Shown here one piece after another: positions 2,415 to 13,947 of a stretch of DNA of 13,947 nt. The stretch is from Anaerolineae bacterium (GTDB taxonomy: Bacteria; Chloroflexota; Anaerolineae; Promineifilales; Promineifilaceae): positions 1-13,947 of the forward strand of contig WFSA01000009.1 in the NCBI GenBank assembly GCA_015486215.1, given 5' to 3'. The position numbers and the translations under genes are program-made. The notes below the pieces were generated by a model, which saw nothing but the letters and a program-made list of their open reading frames with translations, was not told the DNA's origin and ran no database searches. Positions within the stretch are counted from its first letter, which is position 1; each line of letters opens with the position of its first letter.

Positions 2415-3851
2415 TTATTTAACGATAATGGGCAGATAGACCTCTCTTGCTTCTATGAAAAAGTGAGCCGGGCGGCTCCACGCGCCGGAGATCGTGTCAG
2501 ATTTGGCACGAATCCACCACGCGTACTCCCCTTTTGGCAGAGCGGTGGAGACGGTGTAGGAGCAGTTCTGGGTTGCGTTTTCGCAATGGGCGGCAACGGC
2601 CGTTACTTCACTTTGCCCGTAATCGTGTCCCCAATTGTACGTGCCATCGGAATTGACGGCGTATAGTTGGAATTCGTATTGAACGGCCGTTGTGATCGCC
2701 TCCCATGTCACGGCAAACGAGTCGCCATCCTGGGAAATATGCTTGCTGGGCGTAATCAACACCGAAGCGGGAAGCTCATTATCGTAATCGTCACAATGAT
2801 CTTTACGAGGATTGCCGCCTATATCGCAAGGGTAATCGGATGATTGGCCGGGGATAGGGCGAGGGTCATCAGTGGAAATGAGATCGTTTAATGCTCCCAT
2901 CTCGATCTGCTGGTCGCTGCCATCGCCTAAAGCGATGAGTCTGCCGCTTTCGCTGCCGTTAAATGTGTAATCAGCCAACGCATCAATCAAACGGAAAACG
3001 CCGTAATCATCCATAGCATCGAATGTACCATACCCGCCGTTACCAGTGGCAATCACTCTATGATCGGCGGCGTAATCATACCCGTTCGCGCTGCTGGGGC
3101 GCAGGATGACATACTCTTTTGCGGTATCGGCGATCGTGCCTACGCTCTCAAATTGGTCAATATAGGTGCGATAGTCGGTGCCACAATCATTTTCATAGGT
3201 TTGTACGATCATTTTGACATCGGATGGGTAATCGGCCAGCATCACATCGGTGCTGTCAAAATCGATCCATGGAGCCGAAAAGAAGAGGAACGCATTTTCG
3301 CCGTCTGTGCCGCCAAATCCATACTCCCGTATCATCGTATAGCTGACTGAGGTGAGCAGCCCGCCGCCAGAGGAGTGTCCGATCAGGCCGAATTTATTTT
3401 TATCAATGCGTGTTGGATAGAGGTCGGCCGTCCGCGTGAACACATTGGCAAGCTGCGAGCCAATGGTGGCGGTATTTGTGGTGTATTCGTCACAAACGGC
3501 CGTGTACCCCTTGCTGACAAGAAAGTAGAGAAGCTCATCATAAGAAGCACAAGGCATGTTCCAGCCGACAGCAAAGAATAGTACCGGCGCAGGTGACATT
3601 TGGTCACTGGGATAGTAGATGGTGACAGTATTGCTATCACCATCAACATCCATCGAGAAGGTGCTGGTCATGGTATCATGGCTGCCCCAACTGCCATACC
3701 CTGCGGCAATCGGCGCGATTGGCCCCTGATGGGGCTGCCTCAACGATATTAAGGCGAAGGTAAGTAATGTTGTCCCCATAATGAGGGGGAGGATGAGGAT
3801 AAAAATAAGTTTGGGGAAAGATTTGGAAAAAGACATTGTTATAATTTTCAT
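2415..3851 (-). CDS. Secreted or membrane-anchored alpha/beta-hydrolase. It is a GxSxG serine esterase/lipase resembling the PETase, chlorophyllase and dienelactone-hydrolase families, with a C-terminal FN3-like beta-sandwich domain.
   Basis: The N-terminal hydrophobic signal/anchor is KLIFILILPLIMGTTLLTFALISL. The nucleophile elbow is GLIGHSSGGG. The C-terminal ~100 aa (FAVTWEAITTAVQYEFQLYAVNSDGTYNWG...YTVSTALPKGEYAWWIRAKSD) resembles a fibronectin-III-type domain. The 478-aa ORF has no competing frame. Confidence 0.75.
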   Translation of the reverse strand: MKIITMSFSKSFPKLIFILILPLIMGTTLLTFALISLRQPHQGPIAPIAAGYGSWGSHDTMTSTFSMDVDGDSNTVTIYYPSDQMSPAPVLFFAVGWNMPCASYDELLYFLVSKGYTAVCDEYTTNTATIGSQLANVFTRTADLYPTRIDKNKFGLIGHSSGGGLLTSVSYTMIREYGFGGTDGENAFLFFSAPWIDFDSTDVMLADYPSDVKMIVQTYENDCGTDYRTYIDQFESVGTIADTAKEYVILRPSSANGYDYAADHRVIATGNGGYGTFDAMDDYGVFRLIDALADYTFNGSESGRLIALGDGSDQQIEMGALNDLISTDDPRPIPGQSSDYPCDIGGNPRKDHCDDYDNELPASVLITPSKHISQDGDSFAVTWEAITTAVQYEFQLYAVNSDGTYNWGHDYGQSEVTAVAAHCENATQNCSYTVSTALPKGEYAWWIRAKSDTISGAWSRPAHFFIEAREVYLPIIVK

Positions 3852-3870
3852 AGGATATTTAGTATCTTCT

Positions 3871-3982
3871 GTATCTTCTCAATAAATCGTGGACAAGACT
3901 TGACAAATTTCATCAGCACTTTATTTTACATGAGTACCATTAAGAAAATTTGTCAAGTCTCCCCCGAATACTGAGAAGATAC
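3871..3982 (+). mobile_element. Intact 112-bp type-1 MITE-like element (copy B) in the divergent promoter region between the hydrolase gene (-) and the sensor kinase gene (+).
   Basis: The TIR GTATCTTCTCAATA at 3871-3884 pairs with TATTCGG...TACTGAGAAGATAC ending at 3982. The internal 14-bp inverted repeat is GACTTGACAAATTT (3897-3910) and AAATTTGTCAAGTC (3946-3959), separated by a 35-bp spacer. A tandem partial duplicate GTATCTTCT sits immediately 5' at 3862-3870. It is the same element as 8468..8579 and 13503..13596. Confidence 0.75.
3900..3927 (+). promoter_or_regulatory. Sigma70-like promoter module inside MITE copy B. It is TTGACA-N16-TATTTT and reads toward the sensor kinase gene.
   Basis: A perfect -35 TTGACA at 3900-3905 is followed by a 16-nt spacer and TATTTT at 3922-3927, which keeps the conserved T1, A2 and T6 positions. 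The same module is present in copies C and D. In every copy it points at the adjacent gene. Confidence 0.35.
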
Positions 3983-4026
3983 CCTAATTTCGATAAAATA
4001 GATCAAATAAAGCTACAGGGGTTTTC

Positions 4027-4059
4027 AGGTGACAGGCACTTGCGAAGTGCCTGTCACCT
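4027..4059. repeat. Perfect 33-bp palindrome, copy 2 (centre GCG): AGGTGACAGGCACTT-GCG-AAGTGCCTGTCACCT.
   Basis: Arms 4027-4041 and 4045-4059 are exact reverse complements. Apart from the 3-nt centre it is identical to 1887..1919. It lies 45 bp downstream of MITE copy B and ~57 bp upstream of the kinase start codon. Confidence 0.8.
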
Positions 4060-4080
4060 TGAATTATTCGTATACCCCCC

Positions 4081-4116
4081 TCTACAAACGGCCGTCTTCA
4101 TGCTACAATGCTCCCA
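4081..4116 (+). promoter_or_regulatory. Candidate extended -10 promoter (TGcTACAAT at 4101-4109). Its predicted transcription start falls on the A of the kinase ATG, giving a leaderless mRNA.
   Basis: TG-n-TACAAT ends 7 nt before ATG 4116. The -35 region 4081-4086 (TCTACA) is weak. There is no SD before 4116. This is inference only. Confidence 0.25.
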
Positions 4117-6767
4117 TGATGCCCGCCCCCTATTTGAGCTATATTGATTTCAACCCCTACACATTCAACGCTGTCTCCCTATTTATCATCGGCTCACTCA
4201 GCGTTATCTATCTGCTGCGCCTCCAAAAGAAAACCGCCGCCTCGTGGTTCCTCATCACCAGCTTAGCCAGCTTCACGGCGGGCGTGATAGTCATGTTCTT
4301 CAGCGCCATCATCCTTTGGGGCGGTGTTTTGGATCTGTTCACGGACACCTTTGCCACCATCAGCATGGCCGCTCTGATCGGCTTTAACTACCATTATCCA
4401 CAACAAGTTACCTCCCGCGAGGCTGGTTTCGCACGTTTTTTTGCCGTCAGCATTAGCTTAACGGCCGTTATCATCAGCAGTTGGTATACGTGGCAAATTT
4501 ACAGAGTACATGCGTTTACAACGGCCGTTTCCCCCCTATTTTGGTTCCTGAATCCACTCATGTTTCTGGCCGCCCTGCTCGTCTCCATCCGCCGCGTCAT
4601 CATTATCGAACAACAAAAAACGGCAGCGGCAGGCTGGCATCATGCGTGGCTCGCCTTCTATCGGCCATCCCATCGTCAGGCGCGTTTATTGCGTAATTTC
4701 TCGTTAGCCTTATCGTTGGGATTGATACAAGGCATCGCCACTGGATTGAGCAGGACTGGACATATCTCGTCCCTGACGGCCGTTTACGCCATCAATCTCT
4801 CCCTGCTGCTGATGGTGGTTACCATCGTCTACGCCTCCTTTGAACTGACACAACAGCAGCCCGGTCTGATCATCCGTTTATTAGGACTTTCCCTGACGAC
4901 CTTATTACTGATTTTGGGCATTTTGGGCATATTTATGGTCAGTACCGCCATTGATTGGGTAAACATGCAAAACATCGCCTACACGAAAGTTGTGCAAAAA
5001 GTGGTTCGCGCTGACGAAACGGCCGCCTTGCCCGATGAAGTCGCCTACGTCGTCGCGTGGCCTAACGCGAAGACGGCGCAGTTGCTTTATGACAAACAGG
5101 GCACAATGGATATGCCATCCCTGATCGCCGAACAACAGCAAATAACGGCGAGAACGCTACCGCCCGCCGTCTGGATATCATTCATCCAGCCGCTCCTCCA
5201 CGCAGAAAACAGCACAACGGCCGTAAAATTCCGTTACGGATCAAACCCGCCCGGCTCTTGGCACCAATACGCCGCCTACACCTTTCGCCACGCTGGGATG
5301 GAGTACGAAGTCGGCTTCAAGTTGGCTGAGATGCGCCGCTTCCCCCGCGCCGTCAGCGTGGTTATGATTTGGGCGGTGATGTGCAGCACTCTCTTCATTC
5401 TCATCATTTTTCCGCTTTTTTTTAACGCTGATTTGATACGGCCATTAAACCGTTTGCTCGCTGGCGTGCAACAGGCGGATGACGGCGATCTAAACATCGC
5501 CATCCCTGTGGTACATGAAGATGAAGTCGGCTTTTTAACGGCCGCTTTCAACAAAATGGCCGCCTCATTACAAGATGAACTGACACAGCGACAACGCGCC
5601 CAAACAGAGTTACGCCATCTTGCCGATTCATTGGAGCGGCGCGTTGCCGCCCGTACCTACGAGTTGAGCGCATTATATGATGTTACCAAAGCGGCCAGCC
5701 AAGCACAAGATTTTCCCGCCTTGCTAACCGCCTCCCTCAACAGTGCCATCCGCGCCCTCAGCAGCGACGCTGGGTTTATTATTCTGACAGATGAAGAAGG
5801 GGTATCGCCGCACGCCACCTACCATCTAGCCACCCATCAAGGGATCGGCGATTGGCTGCCCCTTATTCAAAAAACGATTACCAACGGCGACTTTCTAGAA
5901 ATCATCAACCAACAAGACAAAGAACCCGTCCTCATCGCCAATACGTCCGCAGACCTACGTGCCCCGCATTTCATGCAGCTTATGCCGACGACGCTCCTCA
6001 TCGCGCCGTTATCGGCTGGAGAGCAGTTGTCGGGAGTGCTGATCGTCTACCGTGCTTTAGGACAAAGTTATAGCTTAAATGAGATTGCGCTGCTCATCTC
6101 AATCTCTGGACAACTGTCCATCGCCGCGCAAACAGACCGTCTGCGCCAACGCACCATCGTTTTGGAAGAGCGGCAGCGGCTCGCCCGCGACCTGCATGAT
6201 TCTGTCATCCAATCGCTTTATGGGCTGGCAACATTGACTGAAGTGGGAAAAATGCACGCCGCCGACGGAAATCTGGAGCCGATTGTGCCTATGTTCGCCA
6301 AAATCAGTAAGGCAGCACGGCAAGCGATTCGGGAAATGCGGCTGTTTATCCATCAATTGCGCCCGATGATTTTGGAACAGGAAGGGTTAGCCGACGCGCT
6401 GGAACTGCGGCTAACGGCCGTCGAAGGGCGTTCAGATGTGCAAGTGCGCCTGCAAGCCGATCCCGACCTGCGCCTGCCGCTGCCACTGGAAACCGCGCTC
6501 TATCAAATCGCGCAGGAAGCCCTCAACAACATTTTGCGTCACGCCCACGCGGAAACGATCATTATCACGCTGCACGGGCAAAACGGCCGTTTCATCCTAG
6601 AAATCCAAGACGACGGGCGCGGATTCGACCCGAATAAGGTTGACAACGGCCGTTTAGGGTTGAACAATATGCGGGCACGGGCGAAAGAGATTGGAGCTGA
6701 GTTTGCCATCACCTCCGCGCTCGGCATCGGAACCAAGATAAATATTGTGGTACATTATGACCCATAA
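4116..6767 (+). CDS. Sensor histidine kinase of the NarL-partner (HisKA_3) class. The N-terminal region has ~10 transmembrane helices and a ~130-aa extracytoplasmic loop, followed by HAMP, coiled-coil, GAF, HisKA_3 and HATPase_c domains.
   Basis: The H-box is ERQRLARDLHDSVIQSLYGL (HisKA_3 type). HAMP-like RPLNRLLAGVQQADDGDLNIAIP...GFLTAAFNKMAASLQDEL is present. A GAF-like segment (ALYDVTKAAS...GVLIVYRALGQ) follows. The ATPase has the N box QIAQEALNNILRHA and the G boxes DDGRGFD and GLGLNNMRARA. I prefer ATG 4116/4119 over the listed 4029, which lies inside the 33-bp palindrome. The stop codon at 6765-6767 overlaps the downstream regulator start. Confidence 0.85.
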   Translation: MMPAPYLSYIDFNPYTFNAVSLFIIGSLSVIYLLRLQKKTAASWFLITSLASFTAGVIVMFFSAIILWGGVLDLFTDTFATISMAALIGFNYHYPQQVTSREAGFARFFAVSISLTAVIISSWYTWQIYRVHAFTTAVSPLFWFLNPLMFLAALLVSIRRVIIIEQQKTAAAGWHHAWLAFYRPSHRQARLLRNFSLALSLGLIQGIATGLSRTGHISSLTAVYAINLSLLLMVVTIVYASFELTQQQPGLIIRLLGLSLTTLLLILGILGIFMVSTAIDWVNMQNIAYTKVVQKVVRADETAALPDEVAYVVAWPNAKTAQLLYDKQGTMDMPSLIAEQQQITARTLPPAVWISFIQPLLHAENSTTAVKFRYGSNPPGSWHQYAAYTFRHAGMEYEVGFKLAEMRRFPRAVSVVMIWAVMCSTLFILIIFPLFFNADLIRPLNRLLAGVQQADDGDLNIAIPVVHEDEVGFLTAAFNKMAASLQDELTQRQRAQTELRHLADSLERRVAARTYELSALYDVTKAASQAQDFPALLTASLNSAIRALSSDAGFIILTDEEGVSPHATYHLATHQGIGDWLPLIQKTITNGDFLEIINQQDKEPVLIANTSADLRAPHFMQLMPTTLLIAPLSAGEQLSGVLIVYRALGQSYSLNEIALLISISGQLSIAAQTDRLRQRTIVLEERQRLARDLHDSVIQSLYGLATLTEVGKMHAADGNLEPIVPMFAKISKAARQAIREMRLFIHQLRPMILEQEGLADALELRLTAVEGRSDVQVRLQADPDLRLPLPLETALYQIAQEALNNILRHAHAETIIITLHGQNGRFILEIQDDGRGFDPNKVDNGRLGLNNMRARAKEIGAEFAITSALGIGTKINIVVHYDP

Positions 6768-7434
6768 AACAGTCCCCTCCCCCTCCCCCACGCTGCGTAT
6801 TTTAATCGCTGACGACCACGCCATCGTCCGCGAAGGGCTGGAAGCGGTGATCGCCACCCAGCCAGATATGGCATTGGTGGGAACGGCCGTAAACGGAGTA
6901 GAAGCCGTCTCTCTAGCCGCACAGCTAAATCCCGACATGATCCTGATGGATTTGATGATGCCCCAGTTGGACGGATTAGCCGCTATTCAACAAATAACAA
7001 CCGCCAATCCAGCCGCCCGCATCCTCGTTCTCACCAGCTTCGCCGACGATGAACGGCTCTTTCCGGCCATCAAAGCGGGCGCGATGGGGTATCTGCTCAA
7101 AGACACCCTGCCCGCCGACCTGCTGCAAGCGATCCGCAATGTCGCTCAGGGAGAAACGTCCCTGCACCCGACCATCGCCCGCCGCATAATTCAAGAAATC
7201 CAACAGCCAGCCGCAAAAACGGCCGTTCCCGACCCCCTGACCGCCCGCGAAATGGAAACACTGCGCCTCATCGCTCGCGGCCTCACCAATAGGGAAATCG
7301 CCGCCGCGCTCACCATTCACCCCAAAACCGTCGCCAAATACGTCAGCACCATCCTGCAAAAACGGCACTTAGCCAACCGCACCCAAGCCGCCCTCTACGC
7401 ACTACGCGAAGGATTAGCCAGTTTAGACGAGTAA
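6757..7434 (+). CDS. NarL/FixJ-family response regulator with a REC receiver domain and a LuxR-type HTH.
   Basis: RILIADDHAIVREGL...MILMDLMMPQLDGL has the acidic pair and the phospho-acceptor Asp. LTAREMETLRLIARGLTNREIAAALTIHPKTVAKYVSTILQK is a LuxR/GerE HTH. ATG 6757 (MTHKTV...) overlaps the kinase stop, suggesting translational coupling. The alternative in-frame ATG 6745 gives MWYIMTHK. Confidence 0.85.
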   Translation: MTHKTVPSPSPTLRILIADDHAIVREGLEAVIATQPDMALVGTAVNGVEAVSLAAQLNPDMILMDLMMPQLDGLAAIQQITTANPAARILVLTSFADDERLFPAIKAGAMGYLLKDTLPADLLQAIRNVAQGETSLHPTIARRIIQEIQQPAAKTAVPDPLTAREMETLRLIARGLTNREIAAALTIHPKTVAKYVSTILQKRHLANRTQAALYALREGLASLDE

Positions 7435-7511
7435 TACACCGCTGCATACTATTTTCCTGATGGGATCAAAAGGTCAATTTCTTGAAGAAGTTGCCCTTTT
7501 TGGCGTGAGAA

Positions 7512-7553
7512 CTGGGTATAAATACCCACTCCAAAAGGCATCATTCTCCCCTA
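7512..7553 (+). promoter_or_regulatory. Conserved ~42-bp motif containing the palindrome GGGTAT-AA-ATACCC (7514-7527), followed by CACTCCAAAA...CATTCTCCCCT. This is copy 1 of 2.
   Basis: The second copy at 10185..10226 is CTGGGTAAAAATACCCACTCAAAA...TCATTCTCCCCTGTC. The palindromic core is conserved as 5-bp arms GGGTA/TACCC around 4 central A/T bases. It lies 78 bp downstream of the regulator stop and 134 bp upstream of the LamG gene ATG. Confidence 0.5.
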
Positions 7554-7653
7554 TCCATCGGGTATCGCCCCTTGTTACCATATAATGCATCCATTTATCG
7601 TACGGCAAAGTATGTGGGCAACGGCCGTAGTATCATTACAAGGAGCAGTAAGA

Positions 7654-8457
7654 ATGAAGAAAAAATGGTCAAACTCATTTTTATTATGCATATCATTAGT
7701 ACTACTCACTGGATCAAGTCTCATCAACGGGGAGTATTTCACCGCCAACATCGCCTTAGTCAACGCCAATGAGTCTGCCCAGCAAGGAGCGGTTGCATAC
7801 TGGAAGTGCGACGATGGATCGGGAACCGTCGCCAGCGACAGTTCTGGCAACGACCACGATGGAACTCTGGTCAGCACGACATGGACATCCGATGTCCCTC
7901 CCACCAGTTATGACAACCCCTCTGCCCTGCAATTTGATGGAGCAGACGATTATGTATTTGTGCCGGATGCTTCCGAATTACGCATCTCAAATAACTTTAC
8001 GTTGGCATTTTGGTTCAAATCAGGTTCGACAACGCAATCAGGTAAATATCTGTTGGCTCGGAATAGTACTGCCGCCAGCGATCAAATCGCCGTCATCTAT
8101 GAATACACAGAAGATGTGATTGAATTTTACGTGCAGGGATACAGTGGAGAGAATCCACGTTCTGGATCACAACTGCCTTTGGCAGACACAGAGTGGCATC
8201 ATATAGCGTATACCTACGATGGCACAACTTGGGCTGGGTATGTAGACGGTGTGCAAAAATTTGCAGTTTCCCGATCGTTTCTCTTGCCCACAGATGCTTT
8301 GGACGGCTGGTATATAGGTGCTGCCAGCACCATCACATCAGGACGTGTAAATGGCCGTATGGATGATGTGCGTATCTACCTCCATGCGCTCTCACCCATA
8401 GAAATCCAGATACTGACTGCATCCGACGCTGTTTACCTGCCTCTTGTCCTAAAATAG
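7654..8457 (+). CDS. Secreted LamG_3 / concanavalin-A-like lectin-fold protein (267 aa) with an N-terminal signal peptide.
   Basis: AAGGAG lies 8 nt upstream of ATG 7654, so I prefer this start over the listed 7585. The signal peptide is MKKKWSNSFLLCISLVLLTGSS. LamG_3 hallmarks are ALQFDGADDYVFVP, FTLAFWFK, WHHIAYTYDGTTWAGYVDG and MDDVRIYLHALSPIEI. Confidence 0.75.
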   Translation: MKKKWSNSFLLCISLVLLTGSSLINGEYFTANIALVNANESAQQGAVAYWKCDDGSGTVASDSSGNDHDGTLVSTTWTSDVPPTSYDNPSALQFDGADDYVFVPDASELRISNNFTLAFWFKSGSTTQSGKYLLARNSTAASDQIAVIYEYTEDVIEFYVQGYSGENPRSGSQLPLADTEWHHIAYTYDGTTWAGYVDGVQKFAVSRSFLLPTDALDGWYIGAASTITSGRVNGRMDDVRIYLHALSPIEIQILTASDAVYLPLVLK

Positions 8458-8467
8458 AAAATATGCC

Positions 8468-8579
8468 GTATCTTCTCAATAAATCGTGGACAAGAGTTGA
8501 CAAATTTCATCAGCACTTTATTTTACACGAGTATCATTAGGAAAATTTGTCAACTCTCCCCAGAATACTGAGAAGATAC
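8468..8579 (+). mobile_element. Intact 112-bp type-1 MITE-like element (copy C) between the LamG gene and the lipoprotein gene.
   Basis: The TIRs are GTATCTTCTCAATA (8468-8481) and TACTGAGAAGATAC (8566-8579). The internal inverted-repeat arms here are GAGTTGACAAATTT and AAATTTGTCAACTC. Relative to copies B and D this is a compensatory C>G / G>C pair. The flanks AAATATGCC (left) and AATACGCCC (right) look like a degenerate 8-bp target-site duplication. Confidence 0.75.
8497..8524 (+). promoter_or_regulatory. TTGACA-N16-TATTTT promoter module inside MITE copy C, reading toward the lipoprotein gene.
   Basis: TTGACA is at 8497-8502 and TATTTT at 8519-8524. This is the same module as in copies B and D. 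The lipoprotein ATG is 123 bp downstream and has a strong SD. Confidence 0.35.
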
Positions 8580-8646
8580 AATACGCCCATTAAAAAATTC
8601 GGGACTCGTTTCCCTCTAGCTCTAGCTATCAATAAAGGAGAAAACC

Positions 8647-10115: not shown

Positions 10116-10176
10116 AAATTGGACACTGATCACACTGATTTCACTGATTTTTATCTGTGCAATCAGTGTCCAATTT
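10116..10176. promoter_or_regulatory. 15-bp inverted repeat (AAATTGGACACTGAT / ATCAGTGTCCAATTT) enclosing three direct CACTGAT repeats at 9-bp spacing. It is iteron-like and possibly a terminator.
   Basis: The arms are at 10116-10130 and 10162-10176. CACTGAT occurs at 10124, 10133 and 10142, with a reverse-complement copy ATCAGTG at 10162-10168. It sits 63 bp after the lipoprotein stop and ~85 bp before the receiver ORF. The RNA stem would end in AAUUU/UUUUG. Confidence 0.45.
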
Positions 10177-10184
10177 TGCAAGAG

Positions 10185-10226
10185 CTGGGTAAAAATACCC
10201 ACTCAAAACCCACTCATTCTCCCCTG
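10185..10226 (+). promoter_or_regulatory. Copy 2 of the GGGTA-N4-TACCC motif (GGGTAAAAATACCC at 10187-10200), 68 bp upstream of the ATG of the receiver ORF.
   Basis: See 7512..7553. A possible -10 TATATC lies at 10240-10245. Confidence 0.5.
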
Positions 10227-10260
10227 TCAAAGAGAGGTGTATATCTGCTAATTTTGTAGT

Positions 10261-10632
10261 ATGAACACAAAACAGATCACCATCCTCATTATCGCACCAG
10301 CAGGACGTATGGCCGACACGCTTTCTGTGTTATTGAAATCCAATACTCAGATCACGCTGCTCGGCCAAATTGCCGATCCAGATGTCGGCCTGCGTCTGAT
10401 TGTTGAACGCCAGCCCGATGCTGTGATCATAGACGCAAATTTACCCGACAATGCCGTTTGGCCGCTTTTATCACAATTAAAAACGGCCGTTCCCCACACC
10501 CGCCGCTTCGTTCTGATCCACTCATCCCAACAAAGAAAACAGGTCAAAACCACAGGTGCTGACACTATATCCGCATCTGAATGTAATGCTAAAAAATTGT
10601 TTTTAGGAATGGGAATTTTATCTTCTCAATGA
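10261..10632 (+). CDS. Atypical receiver (REC)-like single-domain protein, 123 aa. It may be a MITE-truncated response-regulator remnant or pseudo-receiver.
   Basis: ITILIIAPAGRMADTLSVLL...PDAVIIDANLPD has a REC-like fold signature and a conserved Asp at the DANLP position, but the N-terminal acidic pair (DD) is replaced by AP. The last 4 codons and the TGA (10618-10632) lie inside a decayed MITE TIR (TTATCTTCTCAATGA). I see no SD. Confidence 0.45.
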   Translation: MNTKQITILIIAPAGRMADTLSVLLKSNTQITLLGQIADPDVGLRLIVERQPDAVIIDANLPDNAVWPLLSQLKTAVPHTRRFVLIHSSQQRKQVKTTGADTISASECNAKKLFLGMGILSSQ

Positions 10633-10696
10633 AAGGGCAAAAGAGCTGATAGATTTCATCAAAGCCTCTCAATTTACACGAGTACCACAAAAAAAC
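10618..10696 (+). mobile_element. Decayed type-1 MITE relic (copy E), keeping the left TIR and part of the spacer.
   Basis: TATCTTCTCAAT...GATTTCATCA...CAATTTACACGAGTACCAC resembles GTATCTTCTCAAT...AATTTCATCA...TTATTTTACACGAGTATCAT of the intact element. The right half is missing and replaced by the 118-bp inverted-repeat element at 10697. Confidence 0.4.
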
Positions 10697-10814
10697 CTAG
10701 TTCTAGCGGATTTTGTTGCTGCCTGATTTGATGCCATTTTAAAGCAATACTCGCGTCATTTTTGGACGAAATTTACTATCAAAAACTATCAGCAACAAGA
10801 AACGCTAGAACCAG
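10697..10814. repeat. 118-bp element with ~25-bp imperfect terminal inverted repeats (CTAGTTCTAGCGGATTTTGTTGCTG / CAGCAACAAGAAACGCTAGAACCAG). It is a possible second MITE type inserted into the relic E spacer.
   Basis: The arms 10697-10721 and 10790-10814 are reverse complements at ~21 of 25 positions. The insertion point in relic E, just after CACGAGTA..CA, corresponds to the type-2 insertion point in copy A. Confidence 0.35.
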
Positions 10815-10985
10815 ATAAATTACTCCTTTATCAATACTGTTTTTGTACAGCGTACAAGGATATTATCCGCAGATTTCACAGATCGACGCAGATTAAAAAA
10901 GGTTAAAAATCTGCGCCAATCTGCGGATCGTTCTTCACCCAATTCCAAACACAGAATTGATCGGCTGGAAAACAGCCGTTCTCCT

Positions 10986-13338: not shown

Positions 13339-13502
13339 AAAAAAAACTCCTCTAGCTTACAGATCATATTCGTAGGCTTAACGAATATATTTGACTGTCA
13401 TTCCTGCCTTCGCTGAGCCCGCCCTCGTCGAGATGGGGGAATGACAAACCGTTAAGTTTACAACAATGCTTACAGATAGATGCACGAATAGAAGCCGCTT
13501 TG

Positions 13503-13709
13503 GTATCTTCTTAGTATTCTGGGGAGACTTGACAAATTTTCCTAATGATACTCGTATAAAATAAAGTGCTGATGAAATTTGTCAAGTCTTGTCCATAATA
13601 CTTCGGGGTGAGTACAACAAATCAAGAAAGGAATAAATTGCATCAGTCGAGTCAACCTGCTCTTTTCCAAATCTGCTGTACTCATGTCCCCAGTTTTTTG
13701 AGAAGATAC
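13503..13709 (-). mobile_element. Chimeric MITE-like element (copy D) in reverse orientation, flanked by a perfect 9-bp target-site duplication GCCGCTTTG. It is a type-1 body (13503-13596) fused to a type-2 3' portion (13597-13709).
   Basis: The left TIR is GTATCTTCTTAGTATT and the right end is TTTTTTGAGAAGATAC. The 9-bp direct repeats are at 13494-13502 and 13710-13718. The internal inverted repeat is GACTTGACAAATTT / AAATTTGTCAAGTC. The segment 13597-13709 matches the type-2 element 1690-1814 in the same way (AATACTTCGGGGTGAGTACAAC...CCCCAGTTTTTTGAGAAGATAC). Confidence 0.7.
13558..13585 (-). promoter_or_regulatory. TTGACA-N16-TATTTT promoter module of MITE copy D on the minus strand, reading toward the NfeD-like/flotillin operon.
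   Basis: On the minus strand, TTGACA is at 13585-13580 and TATTTT at 13563-13558. The predicted leader to ATG 13338 is ~210 nt and contains a 9-bp-stem hairpin (13396-13404 / 13438-13446). Confidence 0.3.
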
Positions 13710-13947
13710 GCCGCTTTGTCGTTAAGACAAAACGGCCGTTATCACGATCTCTATCCAGAGTGATATGGTTGCAGAATGGGGCTAACTGTATGCGAAGGTA
13801 CGCAGAACAGAACGGCAAAGCCGCCCAAGTCAGCAATATAGAACTCCTATTATAGGGAATACGGGGGGATGTGACAGTAACGGGTCACATCAAATAGGCA
13901 CTTTTGGTTTCATAACCAATCTATCCTCCACCGGGTCTTAGGGAAGG

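Follow-up and report, generated by a model that had tools for sequence, protein, structure and literature searches.

The promoter-like sequence TTGACA-N16-TATTTT found in an uncultured Anaerolineae (Chloroflexota) lineage is part of a recently multiplied MITE and is probably neither kept nor oriented for the neighbouring genes. The window, by which we mean the whole 13,947-nt stretch of DNA that was analysed, contained three matches in a pattern search, and all three were one identical 28-mer, TTGACAAATTTCATCAGCACTTTATTTT, located at 3900-3927 on the plus strand (copy B), 8497-8524 on the plus strand (copy C) and 13558-13585 on the minus strand (copy D). Dinucleotide shuffles of the window produced no occurrences of the pattern. 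The excess over chance arises because one repeat was copied three times and does not represent three independent events. Each 28-mer occupies the same position inside near-identical MITE copies of approximately 112 bp. In a generic promoter scan, the three modules displayed 10 of 12 consensus matches with a 16-nt spacer. Their hexamers are sigma-70-like, keep the critical T-12, A-11 and T-7, and read in a single direction only; the weak points are the 16-nt spacer, the absence of a TG extension and two positions where T replaces A.

We refer to the 112-bp element as MITE-1. Copy B (3871-3982, plus strand, 112 bp) lies between a divergent 478-aa gene and a sensor kinase gene, and copy C (8468-8579, plus strand) is found in a tandem context between a LamG-domain gene and a lipoprotein gene, starting 10 nt past the upstream stop codon. 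Copy D (13503-13709, minus strand) is a composite, with a MITE-1 part at 13503-13598 and a segment resembling a second element, MITE-2, at 13599-13709 that replaces the outer left arm of MITE-1. Copy A, on the plus strand, is split by a nested MITE-2 of 143 bp (1672-1814) into an interior part (1639-1671) and a right half (1815-1862), and its TTGACA left arm is missing; between its TATTTT and the zinc-ribbon gene lie the nested element, the right arm and a strong hairpin. A short possible relic at 1928-1957 on the plus strand, TTATTTACGAGT...CTAAGAAGATAC, lacks both hexamers and does not reach the nhmmer threshold. An old relic, E (10619-10693, plus strand), lies between convergent genes with its boxes decayed to CTGATA and CAATTT; it had not been listed before, was found by a profile search and is orthologous to positions 6791-6897 of L104, a locus of a close relative. 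Thus, the module was recovered at three exact sites, each inside a MITE copy, but it is not present in every copy, as the original prediction had it: copy A is without the left-arm TTGACA, and the relics at 1928-1957 and 10619-10693 are without both boxes.

Two further features of these copies were noted. The last codons and the stop of a 123-aa receiver-domain ORF (10261-10632) come from relic E, at 10619-10632, and the L104 gene at 6433-6804 likewise ends in relic E. At copy B, the first 9 nt of the terminus (GTATCTTCT) are tandemly duplicated just outside the element (3861-3879), and the duplicate may be what is left of the end of an adjoining element.

MITE-1 ends in GTATCTTCTCAA...TTGAGAAGATAC, and its inverted arms, of approximately 40 bp, are imperfect. 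Its terminal inverted repeats, GTATCTTCTCA...TGAGAAGATAC, are those of a MITE, and the stop codons found in six of six reading frames make it non-coding. Target-site duplications of 8-9 bp flank seven insertions: copies C and D, the nested element in copy A, and the copies L107a, L005, L003 and L004 in other genomes. The duplication at copy C (AATATGCC at 8460-8467 and AATACGCC at 8580-8587) is identical at 7 of 8 positions, and that at copy D (GCCGCTTTG at 13494-13502 and 13710-13718) at 9 of 9. The nested element in copy A (AGTATCAT), L107a (TCGAAAAT) and L005 (ATCTCCAC) each display 8 of 8 matches, L003 has 7 of 8 and L004 has 9 of 9. No recognisable duplication was found at B, L106 and L107b. 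A duplication of this length is compatible with several insertion-sequence families.

The empty site of copy D was found in L100 and L101, two contigs of the relative GCA_054008415.1, whose flotillin is 95% identical. Both lack exactly 13503-13709 and contain a single CAAAGCGGT 42 nt before the ATG, and their flanks upstream of the 175-aa gene align to the window at 92-94% identity. The short non-coding length (below the limit of about 300 bp for such elements), the inverted repeats, the fixed duplications, the presence at many unrelated loci and the presence/absence polymorphism together give the element its MITE status. MITE-1 is a mobile non-coding transposon with inverted arms, and the module is inherited with the element. 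It constitutes an undescribed MITE family of the uncultured Anaerolineae lineage, although the kind itself is already known.

We next turn to copies outside the window. A search of a genome collection with a right-arm 20-mer returned at least six loci, two of which (L002 and L006) were chance 20-mers. The MAG "Anaerolineae bacterium bin30017" contains at least four copies, 82-91% identical (L001, L003, L004 and L005). Six-frame MITE peptides, compared with a protein database, matched eight spurious ORFs over further copies; two contigs of GCA_027076705.1 contain three copies (L106, L107a and L107b), 94-99% identical to those of the window. A search of JGI metagenomes for both arms (TTGACAAATTT-N25-50-AAATTTGTCAA) gave 92 loci, all of them unrelated palindromes or other families, and two viral-contig searches gave no family member. 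Among the matches listed, family members occur in a small number of Anaerolineae assemblies that are close relatives of one another. The family thus looks restricted to a narrow clade of this class, and the description of the module as horizontally spread is at odds with the negative searches of viral contigs and JGI metagenomes and with the few related assemblies among the matches listed. The sample analysed below consists of ten intact copies from three genomes: B, C, D, L106, L107a, L107b, L001, L003, L004 and L005.

If the module were a mobile promoter, copies would persist where, and in the orientation in which, it drives the downstream gene. The 10/12 consensus match and the single direction of reading are what such a promoter would display, and there are precedents in the literature (PMC10969869, PMC6382973). 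The pattern of conservation, however, argues against it, and we consider it unlikely. In the ten-copy alignment, the right-arm AAATTTGTCAA is identical in all ten intact copies and the left-arm TTGACAAATTT in nine, the exception being L107a with two changes. TATTTT, on the other hand, is found only in the young copies (6/6), whereas all four bin30017 copies read CGTTTT or CGTCTT; relic E in L104 reads CGTTTC at the -10 position. A -35/-10 pair at functional spacing is therefore found in the six young copies and absent from the four of bin30017, and the -10 is missing from both the sister subfamily and the old relic. Within the six young copies, the module contains 2 differences per 168 positions as opposed to 15 per 484 in the rest of the element, a difference that is not significant. 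Thus, the module is no more conserved than the remaining element, and its hexamers are not conserved beyond the neutral background across subfamilies, as those of a promoter-bearing MITE would be. TATTTT looks like the derived state of one recently amplified subfamily.

The structure of the arms bears on the -35 resemblance. Seven occurrences of the 11-mer TTGACAAATTT were found in the window, all of them in inverted arm pairs around the loop apart from the right arm that remains of copy A. Because it occurs as arm pairs, the "-35" is part of both inverted arms; a -10-like partner exists for the left arm's TTGACA only. Within copy B, TTGACAAATTT forms the inner part of the left inverted arm, and TATTTT lies in the AT-rich loop. 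When the arms were fixed and the 35-nt loop was shuffled, a -10-like hexamer appeared at a 16-18-nt spacing from either arm in 23% of trials. Thus, the promoter resemblance is statistically unremarkable. The alternative raised in the original prediction, in which the arms are a recognition site for a transposase or host factor and the promoter resemblance is incidental, fits best, the arms being kept and the -10 being subfamily-specific.

According to the explanation that we favour, MITE-1 would be a non-autonomous transposon of approximately 112 bp that makes 8-9-bp duplications and has recently multiplied in one Anaerolineae lineage. The TTGACAAATTT blocks of its arms would most likely serve as a transposase-binding or synapsis signal, and TATTTT would be a lineage-specific state of the AT-rich loop, so that TTGACA-N16-TATTTT would be found in every young copy by descent. 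The module may have at most weak sigma-70-type promoter activity, as a by-product. The -35 resemblance would be fortuitous, or else left over from a transposase promoter within the left repeat of the parent.

The latter possibility bears on where the module came from and can be combined with our favoured explanation. In many insertion sequences, part of the transposase promoter falls within the left inverted repeat, and the promoter points into the element. If the module is a relic of such a promoter, loss of the interior would have left it to traverse the short element and exit at the other end. Such an origin would agree with the location of the -35 inside the left arm, with a module that reads inward and through the element, and with a usable -10 partner at one arm only. 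Yet no autonomous parent with MITE-1 termini was found in any fetched locus, and the -10, which the sister subfamily lacks, seems to have arisen from CTCGTTTT by GC-to-AT changes. We consider this origin tenable but doubtful.

We then evaluated the orientation of the module relative to the neighbouring genes. That three of three intact copies in the window read into the adjacent start codon had been taken as non-random. The directions given for the module at the kinase gene, at the lipoprotein gene and at the gene that precedes flotillin were correct (the "NfeD-like" label has no support from Pfam), but B is in a divergent context and D probably so, which leaves C as the only scorable copy in the window. 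Contexts were judged by ORF length, Pfam, a tRNA scan and direct reading. The divergent ones comprise B, with the ATG of a hydrolase-like gene at 3851, 19 nt from the left end of the element, and the kinase on the right; D (probable), where a relative has a divergent 73-aa gene upstream; L107b, between efp on the minus strand and tRNA-Asn on the plus strand; L106; and L003 and L005, both scored from ORFs running off the locus ends. Copies C, L001 and L004 are in tandem contexts and point in the same direction as the genes. L107a is in a tandem context and points in the opposite direction, entering a CHAT-domain gene in antisense at the 3' end; the -35 of L107a reads TTGATA. L107b was considered as an antisense counter-example and ruled out by the plus-strand tRNA-Asn downstream. 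No intact copy is convergent; only relic E is.

The ten intact copies thus comprise six divergent and four tandem contexts, the latter with a 3:1 ratio of same to opposite direction (one-sided binomial p = 0.31). Nine of the ten read toward a gene start, none is convergent and the sole antisense copy has a mutated -35, as might be expected of a mobile promoter. Orientation, however, is uninformative in six of the ten, because a divergent context meets a start codon either way. Thus, the tabulation does not bear out non-random orientation as a sign of retention, and a count of three of three means little for insertions between divergent genes. What stands of the original prediction is that there are MITE copies with a sigma-70-like pair reading out in one direction; their retention for promoter supply finds no support in the wider sample. 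In the explanation that we favour, the element would insert in 5' intergenic DNA, often between divergent genes, and for this reason the module would usually face some start codon whichever its orientation. The counts of six divergent and no convergent contexts are uncontrolled for intergenic length and composition; they are suggestive of a preference for divergent 5' regions, which fits target preference as well as selection. The predicted start-to-gene distances vary from 84 to 213 nt, which also speaks against a mobile promoter.

The individual loci were examined for promoter-like sites of their own. The sensor kinase starts at ATG 4116 and is 883 aa long, equal in length to a 93% identical orthologue. 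A kinase-proximal promoter-like site, TCTACA-17-TGcTACAAT, is located at 4081-4109 on the plus strand and ends 6 nt before the ATG. The 45 bp before this ATG, including TGcTACAAT, are identical in L104, which is collinear with the window from 4071 on; its upstream DNA is unrelated and contains a PemK-type toxin gene, no MITE and no hairpin. The kinase has no Shine-Dalgarno sequence (window 4104-4118), its extended -10 is perfectly conserved in L104, and it looks leaderless. The tRNA-Asn downstream of L107b likewise has its own TTGCCT-17-TATAAT between the copy and the gene. Both loci count against a mobile promoter, as does the setting of copy B, with its module pointing away from the hydrolase-like gene (478 aa, GxSxG, minus strand) only 19 nt from the element and a strong hairpin standing before the kinase.

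This hairpin repeat (4027-4059), located between copy B and the kinase, has a perfect 15-bp stem and a predicted energy of -30 kcal/mol. A terminator role was rejected, there being no U-tract. A second copy of the repeat lies at 1887-1919; the sequence is GGTGACAGGCACTTG-loop-CAAGTGCCTGTCACC, and each copy follows the right end of a MITE by 30-45 nt and precedes a gene. Since the homology with L104 starts just after the hairpin, at 4071, the hairpin at 4027-4059 marks a rearrangement breakpoint.

For the lipoprotein gene, no obvious promoter was found in the conserved 50 bp. The 1,007-bp segment that comprises the LamG-domain gene and copy C (7585-8591) is absent from L104 and represents an insertion or replacement. 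In its place, L104, which is 91-95% identical to the window, contains 207 bp of unrelated palindromic repeats (4545-4751), and these resemble window 10856-10925.

The strongest case for a mobile promoter is copy D, located 42 nt before the operon ATG in the window and absent from relatives. A third, unrelated MITE of 103 bp (13365-13467, minus strand), flanked by a 10-bp duplication, GCTTACAGAT, at 13355-13364 and 13468-13477, separates D from the ribosome-binding site of the 175-aa gene; its insertion point is 16 nt before the ATG. It too is absent from L100 and L101. Together, D and the third MITE displace the upstream DNA by approximately 330 bp from the ATG of the 175-aa gene, so that the operon is separated from it. 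A candidate native promoter of the 175-aa/flotillin operon, CTGTCA-17-TATAAT, is located at 13849-13877 on the minus strand, upstream of the D insertion site; the L100 counterpart of its TATAAT reads TGTAAT. This operon is the sole locus where an element-borne promoter could matter. By analogy with Correia elements or MITEAba12, promoter activity of the module is possible, most plausibly at copy D. Going further, a master copy of the young subfamily might have turned the arm TTGACA into a real mobile promoter through four GC-to-AT changes (CTCGTTTT to TTTATTTT), with D supplying the transcription of the 175-aa/flotillin operon. We consider this scenario quite unlikely; if true, MITE-1 would spread promoters in the manner of Correia elements and be the first such element in Chloroflexota.

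A role in RNA or DNA structure was also weighed. The hairpin with arms of approximately 40 bp might be cleaved, or might stabilise or attenuate the message, when co-transcribed, in which case strand-specific effects of the hairpin, and not a promoter, would account for any preference in orientation. Either strand of MITE-1 indeed folds to a long and very stable hairpin, the antisense fold being the stronger (-43 vs -36 kcal/mol, z about -7), and the start of copy C so close to the upstream stop codon would place it in a suitable position. For Correia hairpins, processing by RNase III has been described (PMC10969869). However, neither strand has a U-tract after the fold and the scan calls no terminator, by which a role as an intrinsic terminator or REP-like hairpin was rejected. 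The Rfam search of MITE-1 returned only noise and no family match, and there is no established orientation bias that such a role would need to explain. We consider it very unlikely that structure accounts for the pattern.

In Correia elements the target duplication is a TA dinucleotide, the repeats are 26 bp long and an IHF site is often present. MITE-1, with its 8-9-bp duplications and unrelated termini, was accordingly rejected as a member of this group and is regarded as an analogue. Correia elements (CREE/NEMIS) of Neisseria resemble it in their length of approximately 100-150 bp, their inverted arms and their common location just upstream of genes; their sigma-70-like promoters can transcribe neighbours, and their hairpin RNA can be processed (PMC10969869). 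Correia promoters were experimentally tested, whereas the promoter of MITE-1 is a predicted one. Sigma-70-like promoters inside MITEs are documented for Correia, MITEAba12, BrickBuilt, QMITE1 and SonMITE_1 (PMC10969869).

The closest analogue is MITEAba12 of Acinetobacter. It is 113 bp long, as opposed to 112 bp here, makes 9-bp duplications, and is non-coding, hairpin-forming and intergenic; its outward sigma-70-like hexamers are intact in some subgroups only (PMC6382973). It differs in having 16-bp terminal repeats, a parent in ISAba12 and RNA-seq transcripts from one promoter (PMC6382973). MITE-1, for its part, has arms of approximately 40 bp with the -35 inside the arm, belongs to Chloroflexota, has no sequence similarity to MITEAba12, and its promoter is a prediction from the DNA sequence. 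There is also a likeness to insertion-sequence hybrid promoters: the MITE-1 termini TTGAGAAGATAC contain an outward -35-like TTGAGA 6 nt from the tip, which together with the flanks gives promoter-like matches at 3971-3999, 1803-1831, 1683-1654 and 8479-8451. These predicted matches are distinct from the TTGACA-N16-TATTTT module, with a weaker consensus (9-10 of 12) and a dependence on the flank.

If the module is active, the known mobile-promoter phenomenon extends to Chloroflexota, which would be incremental and involve no new principle. A perfect -35 before several genes can be transposon inverted-arm sequence, and this calls for caution. MITE-1 also breaks assemblies, creates spurious ORF calls and marks rearrangement breakpoints between close relatives. 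A public contig of the same DNA (L007) ends inside copy C, and at least eight database "proteins" (P0150-P0157) are spurious ORFs through MITE copies, such as L106 470-793 and L107 3693-3938.

The second MITE type has the termini GTAWCTTCTCAA...TTGAGAAGATAC and a different interior with its own internal hairpin. Its copies are located at 1672-1814 (nested in A), at 13599-13709 (fused to D) and at 7441-7560 of L004. The termini shared by MITE-1 and MITE-2 suggest that one transposase mobilises several MITE types.

The window is also rich in a palindromic octamer, ACGGCCGT, usually found as AACGGCCGTT, with 27 occurrences in 13.9 kb vs 0.24 expected. The sites include 152, 2337, 4088, 6583, 8794 and 13732, and 23 of the 27 are inside genes. 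Its frequency is approximately 2 per kb in related Anaerolineae loci (L001, L003-L005, L100-L104, L106 and L107) and zero in the unrelated loci L002, L006 and L105. A literature search on the octamer returned no description, only primer sequences. Its behaviour is that of a highly iterated palindrome, similar to HIP1 of cyanobacteria. Other repeats in the intergenic DNA of the window comprise a 48-nt direct repeat (AGARCTGGGTAWAAATACCCACTC...) upstream of two genes, at 7508-7555 and 10181-10228, and two further features, a palindrome with 24-bp arms at 10116-10176 and an inverted repeat with 25-bp arms at 10697-10814.
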